Assembly: GCA_002084765.1 (NCBI GenBank)
Contig: NBMB01000012.1
Location: forward strand, 21,084-85,083
Source: Candidatus Cloacimonetes bacterium 4572_55
Lineage (GTDB): Bacteria; 4572-55
Length of the DNA: 64,000 nt
Direction: 5' to 3'
In this document: positions 4,049 through 40,847 of the stretch, one piece after another
Layout: each line of letters opens with the position of its first letter
Position numbering within the stretch: position 1 is the stretch's first letter
The notes under the pieces: model-generated
What the model was told of the DNA's origin: nothing
Database searches by the model: none
What the model saw: the letters and a program-made list of their open reading frames with translations, nothing else
Translations under genes and position numbers: made by a program

Positions 4049-4299
4049 AGCGCAGTAACCGAGATAATGAGTTAAGGAGTGCCGCCATACAGCGCAAAAA
4101 TATGAAAACTAAATGAAATATAATCAGATTCTCATAAAATTGCTTGCGATTCTTAAAAAATTCGATAATTTCTAACCAAAATAATTCGTCACAAGAGGCA
4201 GTAAAGCATGGAAGGTGATCCGCAGATTACGCAAATTACCATAGAGTTTTGACGCAAAATTCGTCATTCGTCATTCATAGAAACATATTCGGCATTAAC

Positions 4300-4510
4300 A
4301 AGTGCCATAAGGCTTAATCGGGAAACCGGTGCGATTCCGGTACAGTCCCCGCTACTGTAATTGGTGACAAACCCAACCACGCCACTGTCCTGTAGATGGG
4401 AAGGCATGGGTGACGGATGATCCATGAGTCAGGAGACCTGCTTGATAATGCGCTGGACCGATCCTTCGGGGGGTGAGGAGAAGTGTCGTCGGCACAGTTG
4501 GATGAATCCA
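4300..4510 (+). promoter_or_regulatory. cobalamin (B12) riboswitch
   Basis: AATCGGGAAACCGGTGCGATTCCGG, GCCACTG, and B12-box-like AGTCAGGAGACCTGC at 4427-4441, immediately upstream of a TonB-dependent receptor gene. Confidence 0.8.
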
Positions 4511-4596
4511 CCGATAGTCGGCGCACAAAATAGAATAAGCCCGATCTCCAAGCCGCCTTTAGATTTGAATATCATGCTTATTCTATTTTATTAGCT

Positions 4597-6762
4597 ATGA
4601 AAAACGTTACTATTATTTTCCTCTGGATAGCATTTTTCCTCCCACCCTGGACAGTTCAAGCCGACGCGGTAAGCGGTCGATTGGTGGACGCGCAGACAGG
4701 ACGACCAGTTATCAGCGCGGAGATCCGATTCCATCTCGACCAATCGCTCTCCGAATATCGCGTCAGCGACGATCAAGGTCGCTTCTTTTTTGCCATAGAA
4801 AAATCCATCGCCTGTTCCCTGACGATCTGTCATATCGGATACAAAACCGTGACTCTGCCAGTTGATTATTCGACGACCATGAGAGTCTGTTTACAACCGA
4901 ATCTGCTTGAATCTCCGACTCTGCTGGTAACTGGATCCAGATTGCCCATGTTTGCCAACGATATCGCGGGTTCAATCAGCCTGATCACTTCCGAGGACTT
5001 GGCGCACGCAACGGGCTCCTCTCTGTCCGACGTGATGCGCGGGGTCGGGGGGATGACGCAACGAGCGTACGGAGGACCAGGAGGATTGCGCGCCTTATCG
5101 ATTCGAGGAGGCGCGACGCATCACACCGTAGTTTTGCTGGACGGCGTCCGCATCAATAGCGATCAAAATGGGATTCTGGACGGAAATATTTTGCCATTAT
5201 CGATTATCCGACAGATTGAGGTCTATAAAAGTGGCAATTCCGCGGTACATGGCGCGGACGCGGTCTCCGGCGTGATCAATATCTCGACGGAACAGCACCA
5301 AATTCCTGGATTTCGGATAGCTGCCAGCGTCGGTTCATTCGGCTATCGGGATATAAGCGGATCTGCCTCGCAATCTCACGATTCCTTCGGAGATCTGAGC
5401 ATGATTTTTTCCGATGAACGGTCGGACGGGGATTTCCCCTATCGTTACAGGGGGAAAGAACAGAAGCGGACACATGCCGATTATCACCGTCAAAATTTAT
5501 TGGTCAAATACAGCGTTAATCCATTTCAAAATCTATCTTTAAAATGGCAGACTCTTTATCATCAATCAGATGTCGGCGCGCCGAGACAGATCAGTCAAGG
5601 CGAAAGTTCTGCAAGCCAAGGCGCGCGCCAACATGATGAAAATTTGTTCGGGCAGTGCGTTGTGACATATCTGTTTCACAAAAAGCACTCGTTAGAACTG
5701 ACTCTGTTCGGTCAATCGGATGATCAGAAATACAATGACCCAAATATTGTTATCAACGGCGAAGTTCTCGATAGCCGTCACGAACCGAGTAGCGCGGGCG
5801 GGCGCGTCGATTTTCAGGCAAAAAATAGAGGAATTCATTCGTTCGATATGGGCTATGAATTTCGGATCGGGAAAATTCGCAGCACAGATGTCCGCGGAAC
5901 TATTCGTGGCCGACATAGCTTTTTTTTCCTGGATGTGATTCGCCCTCAAATTGGAGGGGAATCTGCGCGCGTCTCGTTGCAACCAGCTTTTCGTATCGAT
6001 CATTTTTCCGATTTTGGTGCTCAGTATAGCCCAAAGATCGGCATACTGGTATCGATAGGCTCAATAATGGATCGGGCACTCTCAATATCCAGTTATGCAA
6101 ATGTCGGACGTAACTTCCGAGCACCCACATTCAACGATATGTACTGGCGAGAAGGCGGCAATCCCGAGCTTGATCCGGAACAGGCTCTGCACGCAGAAGC
6201 CGGAGCTCTTGTGAGCCAGAGTCATGGTGCGATCAGGTGGGAAATCAAAGCCAGCACTTTTTTGAATCACATCAAAAACCAAATTATCTGGCAGCCGAAC
6301 AGCGACGGTATCTGGCGACCGCAAAATTTGAGCGAGGTTCATATCCATGGTTGGGAGAGCGACGTAACGCTGATTTTATTTCATAATCGCCTTAAATTAA
6401 ACGGTAACTGTAGCCGAGTCCTTTCTCGACATCACGCGCCGGGGCAACACACACACAACCAACAATCGCCTTATATACCGGAAACCTCGTGCAACTTCTC
6501 TCTTCAAGCAAAACAGAAAGGGTGGCGAGGATCAGTCTCGATTCATTATGAGGGACAGCGGTATATCACTCTGAACAATTCATCCTATCTCCCTGATTAT
6601 TACCGTGTTGACGGGCAGATCGGCTATCGATTTTTATGGAAAAATTACAAGCAGACCGTGGAAATCGAAGCACTGAATGTAACCGACGCCCGTTATGAGA
6701 CGATCAAATATTTCCCAGCAGTTAGCCGAGAATATAGGCTGCGATTTGTTATTTCATTCTAA
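4597..6762 (+). CDS. TonB-dependent outer-membrane receptor, probably cobalamin transporter (BtuB-like)
   Basis: Signal peptide, CarbopepD_reg-like N-terminus, plug-domain blocks (LLVTGSR, SIRGG, VVLLDGVRIN), C-terminal aromatic residue (…VISF), B12 riboswitch in leader. Confidence 0.85.
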   Translation: MKNVTIIFLWIAFFLPPWTVQADAVSGRLVDAQTGRPVISAEIRFHLDQSLSEYRVSDDQGRFFFAIEKSIACSLTICHIGYKTVTLPVDYSTTMRVCLQPNLLESPTLLVTGSRLPMFANDIAGSISLITSEDLAHATGSSLSDVMRGVGGMTQRAYGGPGGLRALSIRGGATHHTVVLLDGVRINSDQNGILDGNILPLSIIRQIEVYKSGNSAVHGADAVSGVINISTEQHQIPGFRIAASVGSFGYRDISGSASQSHDSFGDLSMIFSDERSDGDFPYRYRGKEQKRTHADYHRQNLLVKYSVNPFQNLSLKWQTLYHQSDVGAPRQISQGESSASQGARQHDENLFGQCVVTYLFHKKHSLELTLFGQSDDQKYNDPNIVINGEVLDSRHEPSSAGGRVDFQAKNRGIHSFDMGYEFRIGKIRSTDVRGTIRGRHSFFFLDVIRPQIGGESARVSLQPAFRIDHFSDFGAQYSPKIGILVSIGSIMDRALSISSYANVGRNFRAPTFNDMYWREGGNPELDPEQALHAEAGALVSQSHGAIRWEIKASTFLNHIKNQIIWQPNSDGIWRPQNLSEVHIHGWESDVTLILFHNRLKLNGNCSRVLSRHHAPGQHTHNQQSPYIPETSCNFSLQAKQKGWRGSVSIHYEGQRYITLNNSSYLPDYYRVDGQIGYRFLWKNYKQTVEIEALNVTDARYETIKYFPAVSREYRLRFVISF

Positions 6763-6818
6763 CCTATTTTGTTTTATTCTTTTTCACGAATGTTTCTTTT
6801 CACAAAGGAGGAAAACGC

Positions 6819-7919
6819 ATGCGTTTTCAAAATCGATCGATTTATTCACTCGCTGTGCTTATTGCTTTGACAGTGCTTTTCTGTTCCATGTCTTGCTCGG
6901 ATGATGAGGCTACTCAGGAGGAATTTCCGTTTCATGAAGACGGAATATTTATTGTAAACGAGGGGAATTTTAATTCAGGAAACAGCAGTCTTTCCTTTTA
7001 TAGCTTTGATAAAAATCGGATTTACAATGGATTATTTGAAAAATGGACTGGACAGGAGCTGGGTGATGTGGCGCAAAGTATGGTCATTGAATACAATATG
7101 GGCTATATTGTGGTCAATAACTCCGATAAGATCGAAATGATTCGGATAACCGACGGGGAATCGCAAGGGACTATCGAACTTGAGCAAGGCTTCAGCCCCC
7201 GGGACATCGTCTTTACGACCTATGGGGAAAAAGCCTATATTAGCAGCCTGTATCAAAACAAGGTGGCAGTTATCGACATGGATTCGCTGACCGTCTCGGG
7301 GACTATCCCGGTTGGCAATAATCCAGAAGAGATGGAGTTGATCGACGGGAAGTTGTATGTGGCAAATTCCGGCTTTGGTAGCGGAAATTCCATCTCCGTG
7401 ATCGATACGGAAAGTGATACAGTGATTGGAGAGATCGCGGTCGGGGACAATCCGGTGAATCTGGAATATACCGCTACCCTTACCTCTGGCACCCATTTGG
7501 TGATCTTATGCCACGGTAGTTACAATGACTTCGACGATCCGAACGACGATACTCCGGGACAGTTGGCGATTTATGACATCTCGTCCGAGTCGATTATCCA
7601 CACGCGGACCATCGACGGGCATCCAACGGATTTGGCGGTCAATTATCCTGGCGTGGGCTATTATATCCTGAACAACAAGGTGGTCTCGTTCAGCGTCTCG
7701 GATTGTTCTGTGATTAACGACAGCCTGATCGTTGTGGATTCTGGCGCGCTCTACAGTCTGGAAGCCCAGGGCGGTCGCATTTTTGTGGGAAATGCAATGG
7801 ATTTTGTCTCGAACGGAAAAGTAACTGTCTATGACGAGGAGGGCGTCCAGCTTTTTTCTGCCAATGTGGGCGTCAATCCCGGGGCGTTTGCTTTTGTCGG
7901 ATGGTTTACGATTGACTAA
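6819..7919 (+). CDS. YncE/YVTN-type beta-propeller surface lipoprotein (possibly BtuG-like B12-binding partner)
   Basis: Signal peptide with Cys-containing lipobox-like segment (LFCSMSC). Repeated YVTN-like blades (KLYVANSG...ISVIDTESD). Sits 57 nt downstream of the receptor gene. Confidence 0.65.
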   Translation: MRFQNRSIYSLAVLIALTVLFCSMSCSDDEATQEEFPFHEDGIFIVNEGNFNSGNSSLSFYSFDKNRIYNGLFEKWTGQELGDVAQSMVIEYNMGYIVVNNSDKIEMIRITDGESQGTIELEQGFSPRDIVFTTYGEKAYISSLYQNKVAVIDMDSLTVSGTIPVGNNPEEMELIDGKLYVANSGFGSGNSISVIDTESDTVIGEIAVGDNPVNLEYTATLTSGTHLVILCHGSYNDFDDPNDDTPGQLAIYDISSESIIHTRTIDGHPTDLAVNYPGVGYYILNNKVVSFSVSDCSVINDSLIVVDSGALYSLEAQGGRIFVGNAMDFVSNGKVTVYDEEGVQLFSANVGVNPGAFAFVGWFTID

Positions 7920-15588: not shown

Positions 15589-18012
15589 ATGGCAACAATT
15601 TCTTTTTTCATTGCAATGCTCCTTTCACTCTTTTTTGCAGGTCAAATAAAAGCGGAGGAGCCGGTTTCGACTTCATATCAAACGCCCCCTTCGGAGATCG
15701 TGGAATTGATCGACGCGCCTCTCACTCCTCATATCAGCGTCTCGCCGGATCGGAGTGCCATGCTTTTGTTGGAGCGTCCTACACTGCTGACCCTTTTTGA
15801 TCTGGCGCAGCCGGAACTCAAACTTGCGGGGATACGGTTCAATCCCCACACTATGGGGTCGAGTCGAGTTCGATATTATCGAAAAATTGTCCTGAAGCGA
15901 ACGGCAGATTCCGTGGAGCAACCGCTTTTCAATATGCCGGAAAATCTCAAGGCAAGCGATGTGCAATGGTCGCCGGACAGCCGTCGCGTCGCGTTTATCC
16001 ACACTGTCGAGAATGGCGTTGAGTTGTGGGTGATCGAGATGGAGACTGGAGAGGCAAAGAGGTTGACCGAGCCGATAATCCACAACGCGTACGACTATCC
16101 ATATCATTGGGTTTCGGACAGCAAAACACTGATCTGCAAATTGATCCCGACTCACCGAGGAGATCCGCCTCCAGAGCCGACTCTCCCAGACGGTCCCATC
16201 ATTCGACAAAATTTGGGGGAAGAAACCCCGGGGCGCACATATCAAGATTTGCTGGAAAATCCGTATGACGAGAGCCTTTTTGAGTATTATTTCACCGCCC
16301 AACTCGCACGAGTCGATCAGGATGGGCGGATCGCTGAGATCGGTAAAAAAGGTATAATCAAATGGAGCGACTCCTCCCCAAATGGACGCTATCTGCTTGT
16401 GAAATCAACTCATGGTCCCTTTTCATACGCGGTTCCGGCGTATCGCTTTCCGGTCAAAATCCAGGTTTGGGACATTGAGGGAAAAATCATAAAGGAGCTG
16501 GCTGACCTTCCATTAGCCGACAATATACCGATCGCGAGCGGGTCTACGCGAGCGGGTCGCCGACAATTTTCTTGGCGAGCAGACGTCCCTGCGACATTGA
16601 TCTGGACAGAGGCACAGGATCAGGGCGATCCACGTATCGAGACCGATGTCCGAGACAAGGTATTCAGCCTGCCCGAGCCTTTTGATACCGAACCGAAACC
16701 GCTGATCTCGTTATCGATGCGGTATTATTCGATCCAATGGGGCCACGGCGATCTGGCACTTGTGAGCGAGGTGTGGAGAAAAACCCGTCAAACCCGAACG
16801 TGGATTATCCATCCTGATACGCCGAGGCATGATCCGGAAATTTTGTTCGATCGGAGTTGGGAGGATCAGTATAACAATCCCGGCAGACCTATGACTCGAC
16901 CGACAGAGTTCGGAACCCGAGTCTTACTGACCGAGAACCATACCATTTATTTATCTTGTGAGGGTGCTTCTCCGGAGGGAAATCGTCCGTTTGTCGATGA
17001 AATGGACTTGGAAACCAGAGAGACCACCCGTTTATGGCGTTCTGAGGCTCCTTATTATGAAAACCCAGTGAGCTGGATGGATTTTGAACAACGCCTGCTC
17101 CTGACGCGGCGAGAATCTGTTGACGAGCCGCCAAATTACTATATCAGGGATTTGAAAAGCGGAGAATTGAGAGAGCTGACCGAATTTCTCCACCCCACGC
17201 CCCAGTTGAAAGATGTGCAAAAGGAGTTGATTCGCTATCAACGCGCGGACAGTGTAGACTTAAACGCGTTGCTGTATCTTCCCCCAGGATACGATAAAGA
17301 AAAAGAGGGTCCCCTGCCGATGTTGGTCTGGGCGTACCCTCGTGAATTCAAAAGCGCAGACGCTGCGGGTCAGATATCTGATTCGCCCTATCGATTTGTC
17401 CGGGTGGGCTATTGGTCGCCGCTGCTCTGGCTGACACAAGGCTACGCGGTGTTGAGCAACGCGACCATGCCTATCATCGGCGAGGGAGAGGCAGAACCGA
17501 ACGACACGTATGTGGATCAACTTGTCGAAAGCGCGCAAGCCGCTGTGGACGAAGTTGCCCGGCGAGGCGTTGCAGACCCAGCCAGGATAGCGATCGGCGG
17601 ACATTCGTATGGCGCGTTCATGGCTGCCAATTTACTGGCTCATTCTGATATATTTTGCGCGGGAATCGCTCGGAGCGGCGCGTACAACCGCACCTTGACT
17701 CCGTTCGGATTCCAAGCTGAGGATCGAACGTTATGGGAAGCTCCTCAGGTCTATATCGGCATGTCTCCGTTCATGCACGCTGACAAAATCGAAGAGCCGT
17801 TGCTCTTAATTCACGGCGAGGCGGATAACAATTCCGGCACGTATCCCATGCAGAGCGAACGGTTTTACAGCGCAGTGAAAGGACATGGTGGAACTGTCCG
17901 TTTGGTTATGTTGCCGTATGAGAGCCATGGATACCGAGCCAGAAAATCCGTCGTGCACGGAGCCTGGGAAATCACTGAATGGTTGGATCGTTATGTGAAA
18001 AGAAGCCGGTAG
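15589..18012 (+). CDS. S9-family serine peptidase (prolyl oligopeptidase / acylaminoacyl-peptidase type) with N-terminal beta-propeller
   Basis: Signal peptide; catalytic Ser in GGHSYGAF, then HGEADNN and ESHGY completing the Ser-Asp-His triad. Confidence 0.85.
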   Translation: MATISFFIAMLLSLFFAGQIKAEEPVSTSYQTPPSEIVELIDAPLTPHISVSPDRSAMLLLERPTLLTLFDLAQPELKLAGIRFNPHTMGSSRVRYYRKIVLKRTADSVEQPLFNMPENLKASDVQWSPDSRRVAFIHTVENGVELWVIEMETGEAKRLTEPIIHNAYDYPYHWVSDSKTLICKLIPTHRGDPPPEPTLPDGPIIRQNLGEETPGRTYQDLLENPYDESLFEYYFTAQLARVDQDGRIAEIGKKGIIKWSDSSPNGRYLLVKSTHGPFSYAVPAYRFPVKIQVWDIEGKIIKELADLPLADNIPIASGSTRAGRRQFSWRADVPATLIWTEAQDQGDPRIETDVRDKVFSLPEPFDTEPKPLISLSMRYYSIQWGHGDLALVSEVWRKTRQTRTWIIHPDTPRHDPEILFDRSWEDQYNNPGRPMTRPTEFGTRVLLTENHTIYLSCEGASPEGNRPFVDEMDLETRETTRLWRSEAPYYENPVSWMDFEQRLLLTRRESVDEPPNYYIRDLKSGELRELTEFLHPTPQLKDVQKELIRYQRADSVDLNALLYLPPGYDKEKEGPLPMLVWAYPREFKSADAAGQISDSPYRFVRVGYWSPLLWLTQGYAVLSNATMPIIGEGEAEPNDTYVDQLVESAQAAVDEVARRGVADPARIAIGGHSYGAFMAANLLAHSDIFCAGIARSGAYNRTLTPFGFQAEDRTLWEAPQVYIGMSPFMHADKIEEPLLLIHGEADNNSGTYPMQSERFYSAVKGHGGTVRLVMLPYESHGYRARKSVVHGAWEITEWLDRYVKRSR

Positions 18013-18086: not shown

Positions 18087-20699
18087 TTATAGTATAGATA
18101 TTTTTTTGCGAATAGCACCCCAAATGACTTCTCCGGTTACTTTGATAAATCTGCCGACAAATATAACCAGAGGAGTTATACGGTGCCGGTTCAGGACAGC
18201 AATTGCCGAGCCGATCAATACGATAAACAGGCTGATCAGGTTGGTAACAGCGCGACGTAGCCACAAGCCGGTATAGGAAAATTTCAGCGGAAATGTCTCA
18301 TCCTGATCTACGACTTTTTTTTCAAACTTATAACGCAAGCCGGATAAAGGGAGATGGACTTTGACCGAATTAACGCCGATCGGTCCCATCAGAGCTTGAC
18401 GATTTTCGGCTCCATATCCTGAACTCTTTTTTTCACCGTCCAATTCAAATTTTATAACCTGACTAATCCACACGCCAACAGGCTTTCCGCGCTGAAGAGC
18501 CGGTTCGTACCTGCACTGCTTTACTGCTGCAATCGCGGCTTCATCGAGACCGGTATTCGGTACGCCTTTCATAACAAGCACATTTTTTACACTCCCATCA
18601 ATATCGATATATACGTTGAGAATGACTTTGCCCTCAATGCCGGCTTCCTGCGCCAATAGTGGATATATCGGTTTGATTTTCCCGATTATCTGCGGGGGGG
18701 TTTCATAAGGGATAAAAATGGGACTTTCCCATGGATTTACGTAAGAATTGAAGTCCGCATCTTCTGTCGGTGCAGTTGGATTTGGCTTGGCCATCGCTGA
18801 TGGAGATGGCTCTTTAGATTGTGTAATGGATTCAATATCATCATCGGGTACATCTAACATAAAGATTTTTACTTCTTCTTCCTCTTCCTCCATTGGAATT
18901 TCAAACTTGGCTCCAGATTTCGGCGCGGGTTCAGAGAGGAACCCGATTGATTCTGATTTATTTTGCTTAGGCTCATGCCTCAAATCCCACTCACCGTCAT
19001 CAAAATCATAATGGTATCCTTCTGGAACGTAAACATTTAGCTCTACCTTATTTGTGAAAATATCGCACCGAGGCAGAGCGCATGCATTATCCGACTTTAT
19101 GCCAAATTCTAAAATTGGTTGGGTATAAATTAGCTCGACGTCAAAAGGGCGGGCATGATCGCCGTTACCAGTTGAGCGCACCAAAGGGATGAGGATTTTT
19201 CCTTGTTCATTTCTAGAGGGCTTACCCCGCTTTCCGTCCACATAAACTGTCCAGATAGAAGCGTGTGGCGGCAGTTCCATTTCCATAAACTGCTTATATG
19301 TATTGCGAATTGAGTAAATGATTTGATAAAGCAGCTTACCTTCTGATAAATACAAAGCTGTTGCGTGGGCAGACTCAATGATTGTGCTAATTCCCTCCAT
19401 CCGCTCATGCTGCGTGATGCTGATATCCAGCTCGTATGGGTGTTTAGAGTAGAAAAACGCAAACAGAATAGGGCGAGAAGATTCAGACAAAATCCATTGT
19501 GGAAGATTGAGATAATCCATTTTGTTCAGGTCAAAACTTTCCTGGACTTGCACCTCGATCGCGCTCTCGGCAATGACAGCGATTTCTCCGGATTCACGGA
19601 CAGCGTCAATAACCTGCAATCCGGGATACGTCGCGGCCAACGCGCCGACTCCCAACATCTTTTCTGTCTGAACCGAAAAAGTCATGTTGCCTCTATGGAT
19701 TTCGTATAAAAAGGGAATCTCCAGCACGCTACCAATATCGGTTTCGCGCACGCGCCATTCGCTCAGGGCATGACCCTCGACCTTGACAACTTCATAATCA
19801 TCCGGAAGTTGCAGCGAGACGCTGGTCAAGCTATTTTGGATAATTTCAAGATCGACCCAAGTTTTTGCGCGCAAAATATCTCTATCGACAGATATAATCG
19901 TTCGCAGGTTGGCATTGAATCGTGCCGGTCTTTTTTCCCTCGGCTCAGTTTTACTCGCCCATCTGAATGTCATTGAAGATGTGGGCGGAAGGTAGCCAGT
20001 CAGATGTGACCCTGCGTCCGACTCATGAATCCTAGTATGGATTGCCGGCGAGACCTGGAGACCCAGATGATCATCAGGCAGCGTAAAATCAACCTGATTG
20101 ATCATAGCCCTGACCGTGGACAAGTTGACAAGTTGATCGCCCTGATCTACCGAGAAAATAGCTTTTATCTCATGATACCCGCTTTGTGTGACGCTGACAT
20201 GATGCCAGTTATTTTTTGTCACAATGACAGCGGGTTCATTGTTGATCCACAGATCTTCTAAGGCGACAAGAGAGTGGATCACAGGAATATTATGCTGAAC
20301 AGGGCCCCCACGGTCAAAAACATACACGGTAAAAATCGCTGTAAACCAAGCATTCATCTGACCAGCCTGACCCGTATAGCGACTTTTTGTGATGATATAA
20401 TTACACGGCGGAGTCGGAGGTGAGACCTGGATAGGCTTCATCTGGCTTAAAATTCGACGGAATTGATCCCGTTTGAGAGTCACAACGCCCTCTTTCAGCG
20501 AGACGTCTGTCTGGACATCTCCGCCCGCCTGCCGCATGATCAACTGAAATTCATCCCAACTCATCTGGATTTCATCAGAATCGAGTTTAAGCAGCTCTTG
20601 TAAGTCAGACCAATTCACACCCTGATATGCAGAACAGACATCTGGTATGACGATAATTATCAAGATCAACAAAAAAAATCCAAAAATATCTTTCATCAT
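18087..20699 (-). CDS. large envelope protein of unknown function with embedded TonB C-terminal-like domain and C-terminal TM helix; paralog of the adjacent gene
   Basis: Signal peptide. Shares blocks with the neighbour (IWTVYVDGKR, RPILFAF...LDISI). TonB_C-like segment PIYPLLAQEAGIEGKVILNVYIDIDGSV...YEPALQRGKPVGV near 18450-18740. Confidence 0.7.
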   Translation of the reverse strand: MMKDIFGFFLLILIIIVIPDVCSAYQGVNWSDLQELLKLDSDEIQMSWDEFQLIMRQAGGDVQTDVSLKEGVVTLKRDQFRRILSQMKPIQVSPPTPPCNYIITKSRYTGQAGQMNAWFTAIFTVYVFDRGGPVQHNIPVIHSLVALEDLWINNEPAVIVTKNNWHHVSVTQSGYHEIKAIFSVDQGDQLVNLSTVRAMINQVDFTLPDDHLGLQVSPAIHTRIHESDAGSHLTGYLPPTSSMTFRWASKTEPREKRPARFNANLRTIISVDRDILRAKTWVDLEIIQNSLTSVSLQLPDDYEVVKVEGHALSEWRVRETDIGSVLEIPFLYEIHRGNMTFSVQTEKMLGVGALAATYPGLQVIDAVRESGEIAVIAESAIEVQVQESFDLNKMDYLNLPQWILSESSRPILFAFFYSKHPYELDISITQHERMEGISTIIESAHATALYLSEGKLLYQIIYSIRNTYKQFMEMELPPHASIWTVYVDGKRGKPSRNEQGKILIPLVRSTGNGDHARPFDVELIYTQPILEFGIKSDNACALPRCDIFTNKVELNVYVPEGYHYDFDDGEWDLRHEPKQNKSESIGFLSEPAPKSGAKFEIPMEEEEEEVKIFMLDVPDDDIESITQSKEPSPSAMAKPNPTAPTEDADFNSYVNPWESPIFIPYETPPQIIGKIKPIYPLLAQEAGIEGKVILNVYIDIDGSVKNVLVMKGVPNTGLDEAAIAAVKQCRYEPALQRGKPVGVWISQVIKFELDGEKKSSGYGAENRQALMGPIGVNSVKVHLPLSGLRYKFEKKVVDQDETFPLKFSYTGLWLRRAVTNLISLFIVLIGSAIAVLNRHRITPLVIFVGRFIKVTGEVIWGAIRKKISIL

Positions 20700-20734
20700 T
20701 CCATCCCTAATTCGGATAAACCGAAAATTTCAAG

Positions 20735-23284
20735 TTATATTTCCTCTTCTTGAACATTTTGAACATCCGAAACCGGCTCTTGATTGACGTCTAATTCCAG
20801 CTCTTTTTGTTTTGGCAGCAGCCAGCCTGGTCGAAAACAAGCGGTTAAAAAGAGAATGAACAGTATAAAAAATAACAGTTTGGAGATATATAACATGATA
20901 ATCATGCCCACAAACAGGCAGGTGCGCATACCAGATTTTGCGCCGACAAAATTCCAAAATGACTCCCAAGAAGCGACCCAACCATAGATCGTCCCAACGA
21001 TTAAAAAAATGATTCTTCGGGAAAAGAAAAGTGCAAGCAAGATAATAAATATAATCACAATTTCCACAATAATGATAGTCCAGGGAGCCGAGAACCGGAC
21101 AGTAAGCGTGATAGGCTCGCTTTCTATCACAGTTTTATTAAACCGGTATAGTTGCCCGCTGGTTGGCATTTCGATTTTCATAAACTCGCCGGCGGACCCG
21201 GGCTGACCCAACCCTTTGTGCTGCTCAGTCTGAATCATTTGATCTAAGTCGGCTTCATTATTCAATTGCGCGGCCATATCCGATTTGTTGATCGCGTTAT
21301 TTTTAAACGAGGAAAATGAAAGCGAATACGCGTGGTCTTCGCTTTGCGTTTGGTGGCGATTTCCCCCAACTTTTTCCAAAGACTGAGCGGCTTCCCGGTA
21401 GGTCGAAACCATATCCAGATCAAAGTTACGCTTTTTCCCCATCAGCAGATTCATCGTGCCTGCCATCTTTTCCTTTTCCACATCGCCGGCAAAATGGAGA
21501 TAGCGATAATCTTGTGGCAAATAAACAGACCACAACATTTTGCTGATCATAATGTCGGCTAACGGAAAGTCAACCTTGCGCGTACCAATGAATGAAAATG
21601 GATTGCCCTTGTTGTAATACATTAAATTCACCGTAAAGCTATTCAGAACATCGCCATCCATATCGGATCGGGCAAGCGGGATCATGACTGTGCCTTCTTC
21701 ATTTTTCGAGGCGTTTTCCCGTTTACCATTCACATAGACCGTCCAGATTTCTGAGTCATAGGGCAACTGGAGTTCCAGAAACTGCTTCCATGTGTTTCGG
21801 ACTGTATAAACCACTTTTGTCAACAATTTGCCGTCCTCCAGCACAACCGTAATCACGCTTCCCATATCGATCACGCTGCTGATAGTCGGCAACTCGTCAT
21901 GCCTGGCGATGGAGAGTTCCAGGTTGAAGGGATGGCGCAGATAACGAAAACCAAACAACAGCGGTCTCTTCGACATATTGATCAACTCAAAGGGTAACTC
22001 CTTGATATCAATACGGTCCAGTTGATCGATTTTCGTTGGCGTAGCTTGTGCCGCGCTTTTCTTTTCCGCTCCGATATAGCCGGTCTCTCGGATCGCTTTG
22101 ATGACTTCAAATCCAGGAAAATTACATTCAATTTTTTCCTTTTCAAACAACCGCTCGGCGATAATGTGAACCACGGCATTGCCTTTCAATGGCGTATCAA
22201 AAGGGATTCTGAGCACAGTTCCACTATCTGTTTCCGAAGTCTGCCAATCTCGTATCTCCTGACCATTTTTCTGTTTGACGTAGAGAATGCTATACCCTGT
22301 CGGCACTTGGGTATCAACGTATGGAATCGAGTTTTGCAGCACATTCAGCTTAATCCGGCTGTTAATCCGCAGCGCGTCTTCCTCGATGGAGAGCAAATTG
22401 AAGGTTTCGACATAAATTTTCGATGGGATTTTCTCTTCAACATCGCTACTATCTTGCCCGTCTTCGACAATCGGCTTATATTTTCGATGCGCTATGACCG
22501 AGATTGAATTTGTCGACGGTAAAATCGCCTTTATATCTGTTTGACCATTTCCGGGTATGACTTCAATTTCTCGGGCATTGGCGATTTCCAGCTCGATCGT
22601 TTCGAGAGGAATCGATAATTCAAAAAGCGTGACCGCGGTTTTGATAATGGATAATTCAAAAATTTTCGGCCCTTTATTCAGATCAGAAGGGGCAAAAAAT
22701 CGGGCTTCTAACCTATGCTTTCCCACCTCGGACGTCGTCAGTTGATACCAGTTTCCTTTCTCAGTCACCAGAGCGGTTGATCCATTCAACGTCACTTCTG
22801 CAAGAGCCGCGCCTGCGGGAAGGAATGGGATTTGTTGATACCCCCCGCCCTCTTTTTCGAATATCTCGAAATAAAAAATCGCAGTAAAATCGGTATTATT
22901 CGCCTCCATTTTCCCCTTATATTCCGCTTTGGTGACGATATAATCCGCCGGAGATTTTGGTACAGCTTGAGGCGGGGGTTTCATGCGCTCCAACAATTGC
23001 CGGAACTGTTCACGCGGTAAGATGACAAAGCCATTTTTCACGGAATAATTAATCTGGACATCGTCGCCTGTCTGCTTCAAGAGCTGTTGAAATTCTTCCC
23101 ATGTCAGGCGAACGTCGTCTCTATTTATATCCAAAAGGTCTTGTAGCTCATCCCAGGTCAGCGTGACTTTGCTGGATTCATCCGGTTCGGCTGAGGCAAT
23201 AATCGGCGCGGATACGCCGTTTCCAATAAACAGGATAAGACAAATCCACATAAGAATATCCGCTCTATTTCGATACGTTTTCAT
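20735..23284 (-). CDS. large envelope protein of unknown function with C-terminal multi-pass TM region; paralog of the adjacent gene
   Basis: Signal peptide, shared N-terminal block (TWDELQDLL...REQFRQLLERMKP), about three hydrophobic helices at the C-terminus. Confidence 0.7.
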   Translation of the reverse strand: MKTYRNRADILMWICLILFIGNGVSAPIIASAEPDESSKVTLTWDELQDLLDINRDDVRLTWEEFQQLLKQTGDDVQINYSVKNGFVILPREQFRQLLERMKPPPQAVPKSPADYIVTKAEYKGKMEANNTDFTAIFYFEIFEKEGGGYQQIPFLPAGAALAEVTLNGSTALVTEKGNWYQLTTSEVGKHRLEARFFAPSDLNKGPKIFELSIIKTAVTLFELSIPLETIELEIANAREIEVIPGNGQTDIKAILPSTNSISVIAHRKYKPIVEDGQDSSDVEEKIPSKIYVETFNLLSIEEDALRINSRIKLNVLQNSIPYVDTQVPTGYSILYVKQKNGQEIRDWQTSETDSGTVLRIPFDTPLKGNAVVHIIAERLFEKEKIECNFPGFEVIKAIRETGYIGAEKKSAAQATPTKIDQLDRIDIKELPFELINMSKRPLLFGFRYLRHPFNLELSIARHDELPTISSVIDMGSVITVVLEDGKLLTKVVYTVRNTWKQFLELQLPYDSEIWTVYVNGKRENASKNEEGTVMIPLARSDMDGDVLNSFTVNLMYYNKGNPFSFIGTRKVDFPLADIMISKMLWSVYLPQDYRYLHFAGDVEKEKMAGTMNLLMGKKRNFDLDMVSTYREAAQSLEKVGGNRHQTQSEDHAYSLSFSSFKNNAINKSDMAAQLNNEADLDQMIQTEQHKGLGQPGSAGEFMKIEMPTSGQLYRFNKTVIESEPITLTVRFSAPWTIIIVEIVIIFIILLALFFSRRIIFLIVGTIYGWVASWESFWNFVGAKSGMRTCLFVGMIIMLYISKLLFFILFILFLTACFRPGWLLPKQKELELDVNQEPVSDVQNVQEEEI

Positions 23285-23370: not shown

Positions 23371-23402
23371 CAAAAAAAGGGCATGTCGTCTCCAACATGC
23401 CC
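23371..23402 (-). terminator. rho-independent terminator downstream of ssrA
   Basis: Minus-strand hairpin GGGCATG / CATGCCC followed by a T7 run. Confidence 0.5.
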
Positions 23403-23486: not shown

Positions 23487-23879
23487 TGGTGGAGGCGGCG
23501 GGAATCGAACCCGCGTCCGAAAATACATCCAACCGATCTTCTACATGCTTATCCCGTATTTTTTTATCCCGTCCTATCAAATCCTTACGGGCGAGTCTTT
23601 AATAGGACAGATCCGCATTATTCTCATCTAAATAACGGCGAACGCGTTATCAGACCAGCCCACTTTACCGTCGTCCTTATCCGCCCACGTGGGCGAAGGC
23701 GGTAAGGACGGCCGCCTAAATTTAGGCGGCAAGCACCATCGAGTTGCCAGAGGCAACGGGATAGCTTGCAACATCATAGTTTGCAGTTAAATTTATCTCC
23801 CGCGAATTTTACGAGTTAGCGGAACTTACTCGACATGCCGACCAACCTTCGGTATCCCCGTCGAATCCAAGTCGCCCCC
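23487..23879 (-). ncRNA. ssrA: tmRNA (transfer-messenger RNA)
   Basis: 5-prime GGGGGCGACUUGGAUUCGACGGGG and 3-prime UUCGAUUCCCGCCGCCUCCACCA tRNA-like ends. Internal tag ORF ends ...MVLAA-stop (GTG CTT GCC GCC TAA). Confidence 0.9.
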
Positions 23880-23981: not shown

Positions 23982-25181
23982 TTAATCGCTCACAATAATA
24001 TAATTACGGATACCTTTATTCTTTACCAAATTTTCAGCGGACAGCTTCGCCTCCTCCCTGCTACGATAATTTCCGACCCAGACTCGATACAGAATCTTTC
24101 CGCCGCCGGAATCTACCTGAACGATCGTGATCTCAGTTTCAGCGTCTTGGATCGTCGATTTCAGCAATTGAGCGTTTTCCGAACTTGAATACGCGCCGAT
24201 CTGAATATGAAATTGTTCACCAGACGCACTCCCATAAGTCCTTTTATCGTTGGACAGGGTCGGAGTCTCCGCTGAAGGCGTCACATCAACGGCTTCACGC
24301 GGGGGGGTATCCATTTTCGGTTTTGCCACCGCGGGAGGCTCTACGCGAGGAGGCGGACTTGGTTCGACATTCGTAACCTGTGGCGTTTTTTCCGTCTTGT
24401 TCGGCACCGGTTTATCCAAAATACTGAAGTCGAGATTCTTTCCTCGCACCATGGCGGCCTCAAAACTTTCCGGATAATTCTCTAACACCCGTTGGTACGC
24501 TGTCAGCGATTCCCGTTTGCGACCACTTTCCGAAAGGCTTTCTCCATACCGATAATACGCCACGCTCATCACGTCGCTGTTGGGATATTCTCTGATCAGC
24601 TGTTGGTATTTCTCAATAGCGGTTTTAAAATCTTTCCGCTGTTGGTAAATATAGGCGAGATCAAGCAAGGCCCACGACGCCTTTTCCGATAAAGGATAAG
24701 AGGTTATAGCACTGTTCAACGCATTTTTCGCCAACTCAATTTCGTCCGCCATGTAGAGCGAATTGGCACTCCAATATGCAGCTTCGGAACATAAATCGCT
24801 CTGTGGATAATCGACTGTAATACGATGATATAAATCCGCCGCTTTTTTGTAGTTTTTCTTGGCGTAATCATATTGAGCCAGTCCCAACAAGGCGTCGTCC
24901 GCAAAAGAGTGGGACGGATGTTCCTGTAAGATTTTCTCGAAATATTTAATTGCATGATCCGGATTCATCTCCAGTCTTGCCAGATACATATAGACATTCG
25001 GCATGTATTCCGAAGAGCCATACGTATTCACAAATTCCGAAAAAGTGCTTCGTGCATTATCAAGATCGCCTTGATTGTAGAGATCAACACCTTTTTGATA
25101 CGCCTGGTGATCGAGCGTTTGACTCCATGACATGGAGAATGACAGAAACAAAAAAATTAATACTACTACGAATTTTCGCAT
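23982..25181 (-). CDS. TPR-repeat protein with C-terminal SPOR (peptidoglycan-binding) domain
   Basis: Signal peptide, several TPR-like repeats, Pro-rich linker, SPOR-like block FHIQIGAYSS...YRVWVGNY. Confidence 0.75.
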   Translation of the reverse strand: MRKFVVVLIFLFLSFSMSWSQTLDHQAYQKGVDLYNQGDLDNARSTFSEFVNTYGSSEYMPNVYMYLARLEMNPDHAIKYFEKILQEHPSHSFADDALLGLAQYDYAKKNYKKAADLYHRITVDYPQSDLCSEAAYWSANSLYMADEIELAKNALNSAITSYPLSEKASWALLDLAYIYQQRKDFKTAIEKYQQLIREYPNSDVMSVAYYRYGESLSESGRKRESLTAYQRVLENYPESFEAAMVRGKNLDFSILDKPVPNKTEKTPQVTNVEPSPPPRVEPPAVAKPKMDTPPREAVDVTPSAETPTLSNDKRTYGSASGEQFHIQIGAYSSSENAQLLKSTIQDAETEITIVQVDSGGGKILYRVWVGNYRSREEAKLSAENLVKNKGIRNYIIVSD

Positions 25182-25376: not shown

Positions 25377-26327
25377 TTACCAAATTCGTCCTTCCAAAAT
25401 TCTAAGCGTTTGACCCGCCCAATAAATTCCCTGTTTCGATCCGACGCCTTGGGTGACAAATATAACGATACCGATCCGAGGAGTATCTCCTGGATAAAAA
25501 ACAACGGTCCAGGCATGAGTTTTTGTATGATCCTCCACTCCGCCGAGGCGATAGGGAGCTGTTCCTGTCTTGACGAAAAGCGAGTCTTGATGTGTCGCGT
25601 TCTGGAGTCCGCTGCCGCTGCCGTATCGAAAAGACGCGGCCATTCCTCTGCGAATGAGGTCTCTAATTTTATCTGGCATAGAAATTTTTTTGAATGGCAC
25701 TCCCTCGCATGTCCAATCGAACAGGACTCCGTCATTATAGAACAGGCTGAGATATGTCAATATTTGCAATGGAGTCATTTTCAAGCTGGGATTGAGACCA
25801 ATCATCAGATCGATTTCATCTTCTGGCGTGAACGTCCGTGGCATGGAGTATCCCAAATTTTCCATGAATCGGGAGAATTCAGAAAATCTGAGCTTTTGCG
25901 CTGCATGGCGAAAATATGAATTGCAGGAATACGCGATCGCGTCGGTCAGATCGACTCGTCCATGTCCGTTAAGGTACCAACAGCGATTGAAATCACTGTA
26001 ACCGGATCGATAGCAATATATTAAGTCATTCGGATCAAGCGATCCTCTGATCAAACCCGCGCAGGCTGTTAGCGGCTTGATCAGAGACCCTATGGGAAAC
26101 GAGCGGTGTAAAGCCGTTTTCGATTGATGAACCGCGAGTATTTCACCGGTGTAAATATCGAGGATCACCGCGGCCACTGAGTCTGGGAGAGTTTTTTGTA
26201 ACAATTTCTCCACATCTGAATAGGGAGAATCCATCGCGTGTTCTTGGATCGACGGAGAACAATTTGAGCCTTGAATTTCACAATTTAAAATCTGAAATAA
26301 TATGAAAAAGACAAAAATTTGTTTCAT
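25377..26327 (-). CDS. penicillin-binding-protein transpeptidase / beta-lactamase-fold protein
   Basis: Motifs SLIK (SxxK), SCN (SxN) and KTGT (KTG). Start overlaps the upstream gene's stop. Confidence 0.65.
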   Translation of the reverse strand: MKQIFVFFILFQILNCEIQGSNCSPSIQEHAMDSPYSDVEKLLQKTLPDSVAAVILDIYTGEILAVHQSKTALHRSFPIGSLIKPLTACAGLIRGSLDPNDLIYCYRSGYSDFNRCWYLNGHGRVDLTDAIAYSCNSYFRHAAQKLRFSEFSRFMENLGYSMPRTFTPEDEIDLMIGLNPSLKMTPLQILTYLSLFYNDGVLFDWTCEGVPFKKISMPDKIRDLIRRGMAASFRYGSGSGLQNATHQDSLFVKTGTAPYRLGGVEDHTKTHAWTVVFYPGDTPRIGIVIFVTQGVGSKQGIYWAGQTLRILEGRIW

Positions 26328-39146: not shown

Positions 39147-39761
39147 CTACAAAAACCACCCGGATAACTGCAAATAACACCGTTTTTCCGCATCTGGTTC
39201 GTCGTGTGGGTGCCACCAACGGCAGAGCGAGACACGCAGCAACGCGCCTGCGGGGATTTCTGGGATCGAGTCCGCCACGCCGACATATGACAGATTCATT
39301 TCGTGGGATTTCAGAGAATATCGAGTGCGACCGCGAGCGTTGGTATACAGGATGAGCTCCTCGTCTGGCTGCCAGAATGCGACGCTTTGTTCTGGAATAC
39401 CATTTTTTTCAGAGATATAGAGACTGCCTCCGCGAGATCGATTCAGCATGCCATGAAAAAGTGTGTCGGGACCCCCGGAACTGATCTGCACGCGGTTCTG
39501 CAACGTTTGTTTAAGATCCCGCGCCCGACCCAGATATTCGCTATGGTAAACGATCACATCCTCCACATGTGGAGGAAACTTTTCTTCCTGCGACGGTGAA
39601 AAGTCCATGTCCCACACCTGACCGACCTCATATTTGGTCGTTATCGGCTGATTTTTGCATCCGGGCTTCATCAGTCGAATATTTTTATTGGTATCCTTAG
39701 CCAGAGCTCCCACACAAAATTTTCCGACCATGTGGGTTTTAGCGACAATGAGAACTCTCAT
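39147..39761 (-). CDS. hypothetical protein (204 aa), last gene of the ATPase/DUF488 operon
   Basis: Start ATG at 39759-39761 overlaps the upstream stop by 4 nt (ATGA). The ORF track extends to 39854 but that part overlaps the upstream gene. No recognisable motif. Confidence 0.55.
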   Translation of the reverse strand: MRVLIVAKTHMVGKFCVGALAKDTNKNIRLMKPGCKNQPITTKYEVGQVWDMDFSPSQEEKFPPHVEDVIVYHSEYLGRARDLKQTLQNRVQISSGGPDTLFHGMLNRSRGGSLYISEKNGIPEQSVAFWQPDEELILYTNARGRTRYSLKSHEMNLSYVGVADSIPEIPAGALLRVSLCRWWHPHDEPDAEKRCYLQLSGWFL

Positions 39762-40246
39762 GGCAAAATATGCTCCGTGTGTATGTTCAAATCCATTTCT
39801 AAACGGTCTGTAATGAGAGACCGGTGACATGCTTTCGGATCTTGTTCCACACAAAATAGAACAACAACGAGATCGTGGATCCCAAAGCTATCAACAAATT
39901 TTTGCGCGTTAAAGTCAGTGAGACACGCGGCGTTATAGGCTTTGATAAAAGCAGGGCTGAGCGCGGCTCGATTCCGTTTTGTTATTTTTTGGCACTGGTC
40001 GTCCGCCCGTTGCACATCACGAATCGCGTTGTTGGGTGCCAGGTCTTTGCGATGGATGTAGCCTATGCCTAATGCTTTCAGTTTTTTTTGTAAGTAGATA
40101 CTGTTGACAAAGGCATACTTTGCCCCGCGCATGCCTCGACGATACCGAATGTCGCAAAACAGACCCACGTTATGCCGAATCAGGGCGTCGAAAAAAGTGG
40201 ATTCGTCAAAGCCATACACGCCAATAGTCATAAATTTCAATATCAT
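39758..40246 (-). CDS. DUF488-like protein (divergent paralog)
   Basis: N-terminal MTIGVYGF...CDIRYRRG and shared C-terminal CHRS motif; 4-nt overlap with the upstream gene. Confidence 0.6.
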   Translation of the reverse strand: MILKFMTIGVYGFDESTFFDALIRHNVGLFCDIRYRRGMRGAKYAFVNSIYLQKKLKALGIGYIHRKDLAPNNAIRDVQRADDQCQKITKRNRAALSPAFIKAYNAACLTDFNAQKFVDSFGIHDLVVVLFCVEQDPKACHRSLITDRLEMDLNIHTEHILP

Positions 40247-40812
40247 AATTTCCTCTTATTTTTGCGATAGGATTTCACAGAGCCAAACGTGTGGCCAAAC
40301 AAACCCTGTTGCCCTCCAGTTAGTCGCCGCATCACCTCTGACTGGCTTTTGAGTTCCCCCAGCTCATCAATGTGCCGCACGTCAATTCCGTTCTGAACCA
40401 GTGTTTCACTGATCAACTTACTCCGATGACACTGCTCTGGTTTGAGTTCGGAACACATCAAGGCGACCCGATATTTTTTGTCCAGCGCAGTTGCGAGGCG
40501 AGAAATACCGTCACGATAAAAAGGAGCTCGGCTCAGCTTGGCATAATCGATTTTCTCATTGGTAAAATATTTCATATCATCGGGTTTACCGCCCAACTGC
40601 CGCCCTATAAACAGATACCCGACGCCGTTTTCCTTCAGACGCCTTTCCAATTTAATTTTTGAAAAGTCCTCATTAAACGCGGAAAACGGCGCAGATCGAA
40701 CGTCTGCCACATAGTCGATTCCATAGCATTTTATCAGAGCTATAAAATCGCCAATAGCGCGGTTGCCGTATCCAATAGTATAGATACTGTTCAGGGTATT
40801 CGGTTCGGTCAT
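40243..40812 (-). CDS. DUF488-family protein (YeaO-like)
   Basis: Hallmark N-terminus TIGYGNR...VADVRSAPFS, GVGYLFIGRQLGG, and CHRS motif. Confidence 0.7.
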   Translation of the reverse strand: MTEPNTLNSIYTIGYGNRAIGDFIALIKCYGIDYVADVRSAPFSAFNEDFSKIKLERRLKENGVGYLFIGRQLGGKPDDMKYFTNEKIDYAKLSRAPFYRDGISRLATALDKKYRVALMCSELKPEQCHRSKLISETLVQNGIDVRHIDELGELKSQSEVMRRLTGGQQGLFGHTFGSVKSYRKNKRKL

Positions 40813-40847
40813 TGGATCAAAAGAATGTTTGGAATTTAGGCTTTCAC

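Follow-up and report, generated by a model that had tools for sequence, protein, structure and literature searches.

A conserved pair of paralogous envelope proteins from a superfamily outside curated libraries, one of them carrying a TonB C-terminal domain, in Candidatus Cloacimonetes bacterium 4572_55

In a 64,000-nucleotide stretch of the genome of Candidatus Cloacimonetes bacterium 4572_55 (contig NBMB01000012.1; the whole stretch is called the window below, and positions are counted in it), we characterized two adjoining minus-strand genes, A (upstream) and B (downstream), which together occupy positions 18087–23284 and encode paralogous proteins with a predicted signal peptide, a large beta-sandwich body and a C-terminal membrane anchor. 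Judged from sequence comparison, both belong to a very large superfamily outside the curated libraries, and the TonB C-terminal (TonB_C) domain of B is a rare accessory graft in a variable membrane-proximal loop. The explanation that we favour, with a probability of roughly 0.35, is that A and B would form a non-catalytic platform in the periplasm, docked passively to TonB-dependent receptors of the outer membrane. The building blocks were known already, while their arrangement, the obligate pairing of the paralogs and the family as such have not been described before.

Both open reading frames (ORFs) were intact and lay at exactly the coordinates reported in an initial annotation of the window, which had been made from the sequence alone and had described two adjacent minus-strand genes with several shared sequence blocks. 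The ORF list gave proteins of 849 aa (A) and 870 aa (B), the former being reduced to 838 aa where gene callers elsewhere have set the start of gene A at Met12. B begins 35 nt beyond the stop of A, and a TAGGGA-type ribosome-binding site is present for each of the two genes. By BLASTP, A and B aligned over 588 aa with 32% identity, 56% positives and an E-value of 3e-114, well above what chance would give, and the alignment spanned all of the listed blocks (DELQ..LL, REQFR..LL, RPLLFGF and IWTVYVNGKR). The suggestion that the two are old paralogs also held: in a tree of 16 gene pairs, the first genes formed one clade and the second genes repeated the same branching, a pattern that indicates a single old duplication followed by co-divergence of A and B. 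The two genes and the parts of their products were delineated as follows.

20735–23284, minus strand: gene A, the upstream paralog, an ORF of 849 aa (ORF list and translation)
23189–23284, minus strand: A residues 1–32, predicted signal peptide (MKTYRNRADILMWICLILFIGNGVSAPIIASA / EP, ending in ..IASA/EP; from hydropathy and sequence, with a deduced cleavage site)
22976–23167, minus strand: A residues 40–103, N-terminal module of three strand-helix repeats (VTLTWDELQDLL / VRLTWEEFQQLL / FVILPREQFRQLL; from the sequence and DSSP of the model)
21479–22951, minus strand: A residues 112–602, all-beta body of three beta-sandwich domains (about 112–268, 287–430 and 431–602)
21185–21478, minus strand: A residues 603–700, helical insert, equivalent in position to the variable loop of B
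21086–21184, minus strand: A residues 701–733, pre-membrane beta-hairpin (KIEMPTSGQLYRFNKT...LTVRFS)
20825–21085, minus strand: A residues 734–820, about three transmembrane (TM) helices followed by an acidic cytoplasmic tail of about 30 aa (hydropathy and model)
18087–20699, minus strand: gene B, the downstream paralog, an ORF of 870 aa (translation, BLASTP against A and intergenic sequence)
20628–20699, minus strand: B residues 1–24, predicted signal peptide (..IIVIPDVCSA / YQG, not a lipobox; from hydropathy and sequence)
18975–20618, minus strand: B residues 28–575, N-terminal repeat module and three-domain beta body, homologous to A
20430–20618, minus strand: N-terminal triple strand-helix module of B
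18702–18968, minus strand: B residues 578–666, disordered, acidic, Pro-containing spacer (predicted local distance difference test score, pLDDT, below 50; composition)
18441–18671, minus strand: B residues 677–753, TonB_C domain with canonical YP and RYEP motifs
18267–18350, minus strand: B residues 784–811, pre-membrane beta-hairpin (PLSGLRYKFEKK...FPLKFSY)
18090–18254, minus strand: B residues 816–839, a single TM helix, then a basic amphipathic cytoplasmic helix of about 30 aa

The signal peptides that had been proposed for both proteins were recovered by hydropathy and inspection by eye, from which we inferred small-x-small cleavage sites. Structure prediction had been suggested as a check, and the AlphaFold2 models, built on a 61-sequence alignment, gave confident all-beta bodies in both proteins, with a mean pLDDT of 84 for A (above 90 at residues ∼115–600) and 77 for B (above 90 at residues ∼100–575). 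The N-terminal module of ∼60 aa follows the repeat x-h-x-h-[TS]-W-[DE]-E-[FL]-x-x-L-L in both A and B (..TW[DE]E[LF]Q.LL..). This module, the third beta domain (D3) and the pre-membrane hairpin are the best-conserved parts of the family, and the module and D3 of A were tied as the globular regions of lowest entropy (1.01) among 26 orthologs. No sequence repeat was detectable among the three body domains, and an internal duplication of these domains was rejected on this basis (hhalign probabilities below 9%). The invariant residues of the superfamily body are R399, P431, P441 and P590 (A numbering), and the hairpin carries the motif P-x-x-G-x-x-Y-x-F-x-K, in which P707 is invariant and G710 and F715 are nearly invariant superfamily-wide.

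Between the body and the hairpin, the insert has a constant length of ∼110 aa across A-type orthologs, and the corresponding loop of B-type orthologs is 62–267 aa long and mostly charged and disordered; the spacer of B itself contains 12 Pro and 20 Asp plus Glu in 89 aa. At the C-terminus, the hydrophobic stretches of A (727–768 and 786–824) and the helices of its AlphaFold model (within 734–817) were in agreement with the approximately three TM helices first described for this protein, and the C-terminal TM helix first described for B was found as one hydrophobic helix after the TonB_C domain.

The TonB_C-like segment noted in the downstream protein was identified as a full-length domain. Residues 677–753 of B matched Pfam PF03544 over profile positions 3–79 of 79 with an E-value of 1.3e-19, and further matches were obtained to TIGR01352 (E 7e-16, 58 bits versus a cutoff of 27) and to the C-terminal domain of Pseudomonas aeruginosa TonB (6fip; E 1e-8). 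The full-length TonB model NF008082 aligned to residues 589–755 of B with 41.8 bits, far under its equivalog cutoff of 265, and because this model covers both the spacer and the C-terminal domain, the graft seems to comprise the entire periplasmic portion of a TonB.

As the initial annotation had pointed out, the topology of B is the reverse of that of canonical TonB, with a signal peptide and a C-terminal anchor only and no N-terminal anchor. The TM helix of B has no His inside, contains no SHLS motif and does not match the pattern S...H......L...S. Nearby ExbB/ExbD genes, which had been named as a further thing to look for, were searched for in the window and in the annotated related loci, and the annotated ORFs of both gave no match to MotA_ExbB or ExbD domains. 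Since B has neither the N-terminal TonB anchor nor the SHLS/His motif, and since no ExbB/ExbD was found within this scope, B would not be energised. An energy-transducing TonB with an inverted anchor, in which the C-terminal helix would couple to a motor of the ExbB/ExbD or TolQ/R-like kind from elsewhere in the genome and the A and B bodies would act as a rigid strut spanning the periplasm and replacing the proline-rich rod, is thus very unlikely in our estimation. It would account for a canonical TonB_C domain with a TonB-like spacer ahead of it in a genome that uses TonB-dependent receptors, and the new unconventional motor-driven transducers proposed recently would be a precedent (PMC12204202), but the membrane helix is oriented opposite to that of TonB and lacks the motif for motor binding, and neither the 64-kb window nor the annotated related loci contain a motor gene. 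Moreover, most of the orthologs keep the same anchor yet do not have the domain, and the domain is tied to both the body and the hairpin, so that pulling via the anchor would be geometrically unlike TonB.

We then considered the distribution of the domain. Among the 13 close B orthologs, TonB_C was present in two (window B and the ortholog at locus L003) and a CarboxypepD_reg domain in one, the closest relative (P0074, locus L005), where it lies at the same loop; the remaining 10 have a linker only. No Pfam domain was detected in ten more distant B-type partners, and, window B aside, no match to the window TonB_C segment was found in the 243 collected family proteins, nor was one found in 43 metagenome loci. 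TonB_C as a feature of the family was rejected on the basis of these four sets. Inserts long enough for a domain were seen in only 2 of 87 single-body proteins. The domain is located close to the hairpin end of the loop in window B and close to the body end in L003, and these different positions together with an identity of ∼34% between the two make repeated capture or rearrangement of TonB_C possible. Given that CarboxypepD_reg occupies the TonB_C site in the closest relative, the loop of B is a candidate site of domain swapping, which suggests an exchangeable cassette for docking to TonB-dependent receptors. In Bacteroides receptors, an N-terminal extension of the CarboxypepD_reg type has been implicated in TonB interaction (PMC12204202). 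Both inserts, TonB_C and CarboxypepD_reg, are modules of the TonB-receptor interface.

Conservation of the gene pair, likewise proposed as a check, was found to be extensive: the A-then-B pair recurred in several candidate phyla, at more than 20 loci, and the A-type gene was directly followed by a second paralog in every retrieved locus with enough downstream DNA except L020. A further A-like gene lies on a different contig (L025) of the WOR-3 metagenome-assembled genome (MAG) to which L020 belongs. All-against-all clustering of the flanking ORFs in 26 loci returned the pair itself as the only shared genes, with no conserved partner gene besides it. Two-body single-chain fusions of 1500–1750 aa exist as well, such as P0143 and P0092, of which P0143 (L029, 3979–8637) is 1552 aa long and occurs in 9 NCBI assemblies, with no further paralog adjoining. 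The ∼four hydrophobic segments between the two bodies of the fusions fit the three TM helices of A plus a signal-anchor of the second body, and this supports both the predicted topology and a joint function. Distant relatives were again found as adjacent pairs, each made up of one ∼1200-aa protein and one giant of 2100–2400 aa in which the body is repeated several times and membrane helices form internal clusters.

L027, 8001–18043: distant pair on a metagenome contig
L028, 3138–14098: distant pair in a Planctomycetaceae MAG

We tentatively consider that A and B act together, as one part of the favoured explanation as a whole.

The statement that neither protein could be placed in a known family was upheld on a wider basis. 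As single proteins, the A and B bodies had no match in Pfam, NCBIfam, PADLOC or PDB sequences (cut-off of E ≤ 0.01 for PADLOC and Pfam), and a known family was also not found with a 61-sequence profile or for 35 diverse members. PADLOC gave no match of A or B to a known anti-phage defence system at E ≤ 0.01. Weak matches to DUF2207 and DUF7713 (E 0.003–0.06, in one to three members) were judged to be noise or TM-driven; the DUF7713 match (E ∼0.004) was at the N-terminal module in three B-type relatives. A has 72 close homologs, all of which are without names or labelled 'hypothetical', from MAGs of Aminicenantes, WOR-3, Stahlbacteria, FCPU426, Cloacimonadota, Elusimicrobiota and others, with Aminicenantes MAGs contributing the closest relatives. 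An exhaustive profile search of representatives at 50% identity retrieved 6394 clusters at E ≤ 1e-3, of which 2312 reached E ≤ 1e-30, and a metagenome scan with a single-protein query gave no match.

The size range of the relatives includes doublets of 1400–1750 aa and giants of 2000–2600 aa with 6–8 matched stretches. None of the ten doublets and giants scanned had a Pfam domain above the gathering threshold, and the idea of accessory domains common to the giants was dropped, with sub-threshold STN and Secretin_N in one and none in four others. The verrucomicrobial giant P0133 carries the NCBI label 'GspH family'. We found no description of such proteins in the literature. A and B both carry all of the superfamily features, namely the signal peptide, the three-repeat N-terminal module, the three-domain body, the P.xG..Y.F.K hairpin and the C-terminal TM anchor.

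By two methods, the best structural neighbours of both A and B were Ost1/ribophorin I and the N-domains of M1 aminopeptidases, with Ost1/ribophorin I ranking first for A and among the top matches for B. In known settings this fold serves as a non-catalytic partner-binding module. Neither A nor B has the HExxH or GxMEN (G.MEN) motif, and neither has a Pfam match to Peptidase_M1; PF04597 (Ribophorin_I) was not matched by A or B at E ≤ 0.01 and was not among the families at E ≤ 1 for the 35 diverse members. By sequence, OST1 has been reported from eukaryotes and from TACK and Asgard archaea only (PMC11417166). Because no sequence link was found, we treat the predicted resemblance to Ost1 as one of shared fold and topology, with no homology implied. 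It is distinctly unlikely, in our view, that Ost1/ribophorin I has its bacterial counterparts in A and B, which would then act as substrate-facing accessories to a membrane glycosyltransferase or the Sec translocon and handle nascent chains or glycans at the membrane surface, a proposal to which the structural matches and the topology lend themselves and with which the lack of a sequence link is at odds. In one lineage, a TMEM260-like gene (GT-C fold, protein O-mannosyltransferase family) is located 1.5 kb downstream of the pair (L006 13894–16608 and L007 11350–14064), with a toxin–antitoxin pair of PIN and ribbon-helix-helix (RHH) proteins between the two; this neighbour is a single case, mentioned here as relevant to the Ost1-like proposal.

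The structural searches also returned integrin-leg and pilin-like beta-sandwich matches, which would reflect surface display if A and B were cell-surface adhesin-like or S-layer-like proteins. These matches were weaker and are generic for beta-sandwich arrays, and TonB_C is a periplasmic module. The window is ordinary chromosome of a two-membrane bacterium (rRNA operon, recA, aminoacyl-tRNA synthetases, Suf genes, an OmpA-domain protein, parts of a type IX secretion system [T9SS] type and a TonB-dependent receptor), the two membranes being deduced from the receptor, the OmpA-domain protein and the T9SS-type parts. A two-membrane host and a helical C-terminal anchor would place the bodies in the periplasm, and we regard surface display as most improbable.

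Under the favoured explanation of a passive docking platform, A and B would be exported by means of cleavable signal peptides and retained in the membrane through C-terminal stop-transfer anchors, of three helices in A and one in B, so as to form two subunits of a non-catalytic platform on the periplasmic face of the inner membrane. Each subunit would display its repeat module and three beta-sandwich domains for partner binding, after which the chain would make a loop excursion and return as the conserved beta-hairpin just ahead of the membrane. The loop would be a fixed helical subdomain in A and a flexible, variable tether in B, and in this lineage the tether of B would have captured the periplasmic part of a TonB (spacer and C-terminal domain). 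By beta-strand addition, the captured TonB_C may bind a TonB-box-type strand of a receptor or a different partner in the outer membrane or wall, and the platform would thereby be linked to the outer membrane without energy transduction.

Several points weigh against this explanation. The TonB_C part of the B model has a low confidence (pLDDT ∼50–70), because few sequences cover that part. Domains resembling TonB_C are also present in proteins that have no TonB-box binding. No accessory domain is present in 10 of the 13 closest B orthologs and in nearly all of the wider family, and with most members lacking a docking module, receptor docking cannot be the core function. A fold likeness to Ost1 and the M1 N-domain says little on function. 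At L020 (9723–12248), the A-type gene has no paralog within 2.1 kb downstream, the only such case among informative loci. Finally, the formation of an A–B heterodimer, the topology, the ligand of TonB_C, the passive docking and the core cellular role are all steps that we infer.

Three flanking elements delimit the locus.

23487–23879, minus strand: transfer-messenger RNA (tmRNA, ssrA) gene with the tag peptide ANYDVASYPVASGNSMVLAA, upstream of A
23379–23402, minus strand: strong intrinsic terminator of the tmRNA gene (10-bp stem, then T7), the upstream boundary of the A–B unit
15589–18012, plus strand: convergent S9 peptidase gene, the downstream boundary of the A–B unit

With the tmRNA terminator upstream and the convergent peptidase gene downstream, A and B most likely constitute their own two-gene transcription unit. 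An operon of A and B with the upstream CpoB-like gene was rejected, as the tmRNA gene and its terminator intervene. This gene (23982–25181, minus strand) encodes a tetratricopeptide repeat (TPR) protein that matched the NCBIfam Tol-Pal YbgF/CpoB model with 129.5 bits versus a cutoff of 90.1 and has a C-terminal SPOR peptidoglycan-binding domain. It adjoins a gene for a 316-aa penicillin-binding transpeptidase-domain protein (25377–26327, minus strand), and a CpoB-SPOR fusion next to a transpeptidase is an interesting cell-wall pairing.

These genes bear on the proposal that the TonB_C domain of B is a decoy or regulator, which would compete with the real TonB for TonB boxes or bind peptidoglycan, an ability of TolA/TonB-like domains, with the pair throttling uptake or tethering the inner membrane to the wall. 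The same TonB_C domain evidence applies to it, a tethered and un-energised geometry would fit sequestration or static tethering, and the TPR-SPOR and transpeptidase-domain genes are envelope genes nearby, though beyond the tmRNA gene and its terminator. However, neither a regulatory partner nor conserved neighbours were found in the 26 loci, the conserved core would be left without a role, and peptidoglycan binding by the domain is an assumption. We rate this proposal as rather unlikely.

A receptor locus is located in the same window.

4283–4459, plus strand: cobalamin riboswitch (124 bits), directly upstream of the TonB-dependent receptor gene
4597–6762, plus strand: TonB-dependent receptor with a CarboxypepD_reg N-terminal extension
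6819–7919, plus strand: DUF5074 protein, after the receptor gene

The region 4283–7919 looks like a B12 uptake locus, and the presence of a riboswitch-linked receptor locus in the window shows that the genome uses the Ton system. Elsewhere in the window, a complete rRNA operon was found at 47890–52797 (minus strand; 16S, tRNA-Ile, tRNA-Ala, 23S and 5S), with the 16S gene at 51246–52797. Adjoining this operon, a 300-aa ORF (53637–54539, minus strand) has HsdM_N and matches the N6_Mtase profile over its first 184 positions only; it probably encodes a type I restriction-modification methylase in truncated form. The cluster at 39147–42541 (minus strand), possibly left over from a defence or toxin–antitoxin island, comprises a DuOB (dual OB) domain protein, two DUF488 proteins and a pair of overlapping AAA_15/AAA_21 ORFs, which together resemble one OLD/AbiEii-type ATPase split by a frameshift. 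The gene at 43817–47008 (plus strand) encodes a secreted M14 zinc carboxypeptidase of 1063 aa, which also has CarboxypepD_reg, He_PIG Ig-like and dockerin-type domains.

In sum, the observations first made on this locus were confirmed and their interpretation was supported. The more than 6000 clusters (50% identity) without a Pfam, NCBIfam or PDB representative constitute a large blind spot in bacterial envelope biology. The superfamily, which almost always occurs as an ordered paralog pair, is a ready target for family curation and structural work. In B, a TonB head is found on a wholly different chassis, with a signal peptide, a C-terminal anchor and no motor motif, and if the favoured explanation holds, it would be a natural test case for TonB_C as a passive tether. 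The Ost1-like predicted fold and topology pose the question of bacterial relatives of a non-catalytic subunit of oligosaccharyltransferase (OST) or the translocon. The boldest version, an ancient and widespread two-subunit periplasmic machine that is truly homologous to Ost1 and in this lineage plugs into TonB-dependent receptors via a captured TonB head, is in our judgement unlikely; if true, it would provide a bacterial relative for an 'eukaryote/archaea-only' translocon/OST accessory subunit and a new way of coupling the inner to the outer membrane without an ExbBD motor, with thousands of members ranging from candidate phyla to the giant proteins of the PVC type (planctomycete, verrucomicrobial). 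The chance that A and B represent a new kind of envelope complex is real but unproven.

Compared with known systems, A and B share with Ost1/ribophorin I a predicted signal peptide, a beta-sandwich ectodomain, a C-terminal anchor and the lack of catalytic motifs, but their bodies are larger and have an extra N-terminal repeat module and a pre-membrane hairpin. Ost1 has a cytoplasmic helical bundle for ribosome binding, whereas A and B have only a tail (A) or helix (B) of ∼30 aa; and Ost1 is a non-catalytic subunit of the STT3/AglB OST of eukaryotes and archaea, whereas A and B, in bacterial hosts, have no linked OST catalytic subunit (no conserved neighbour in the 26 loci). With M1 aminopeptidases, only the fold of the non-catalytic N-domain is in common, and A and B have no peptidase domain and no sequence similarity to them. 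The M1 N-domain group matched included LTA4 hydrolase, ERAP1, TAF2 and M61, together with the VIT domain of ITIH1, lpg2210 and BDI_1141 (PDB 3kd4), from all of which A and B differ in having the fold within a membrane-anchored three-domain array.

The likeness of B to TonB lies in the full-length canonical C-terminal domain at residues 677–753 and in the disordered, acidic, Pro-containing spacer ahead of it. TonB has an N-in N-terminal TM helix with the SHLS/His motif for ExbB/ExbD, whereas B has a signal peptide and no such motif, and the TonB_C domain of B is internal, tied at both ends and placed behind a beta body of ∼575 aa. TonB works with ExbB/ExbD, which are often encoded adjacently, whereas none is found near B and the domain is absent from most B orthologs. 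Finally, the same modules are known as N-terminal extensions of receptors, CarboxypepD_reg in SusC-like receptors of Bacteroidota and a TonB_C-type domain in MxcH (NF038079, which B also matched); in these receptors the extensions sit at the periplasmic end of an outer-membrane barrel, whereas TonB_C in B and CarboxypepD_reg in P0074 are carried by proteins predicted to be anchored in the inner membrane.

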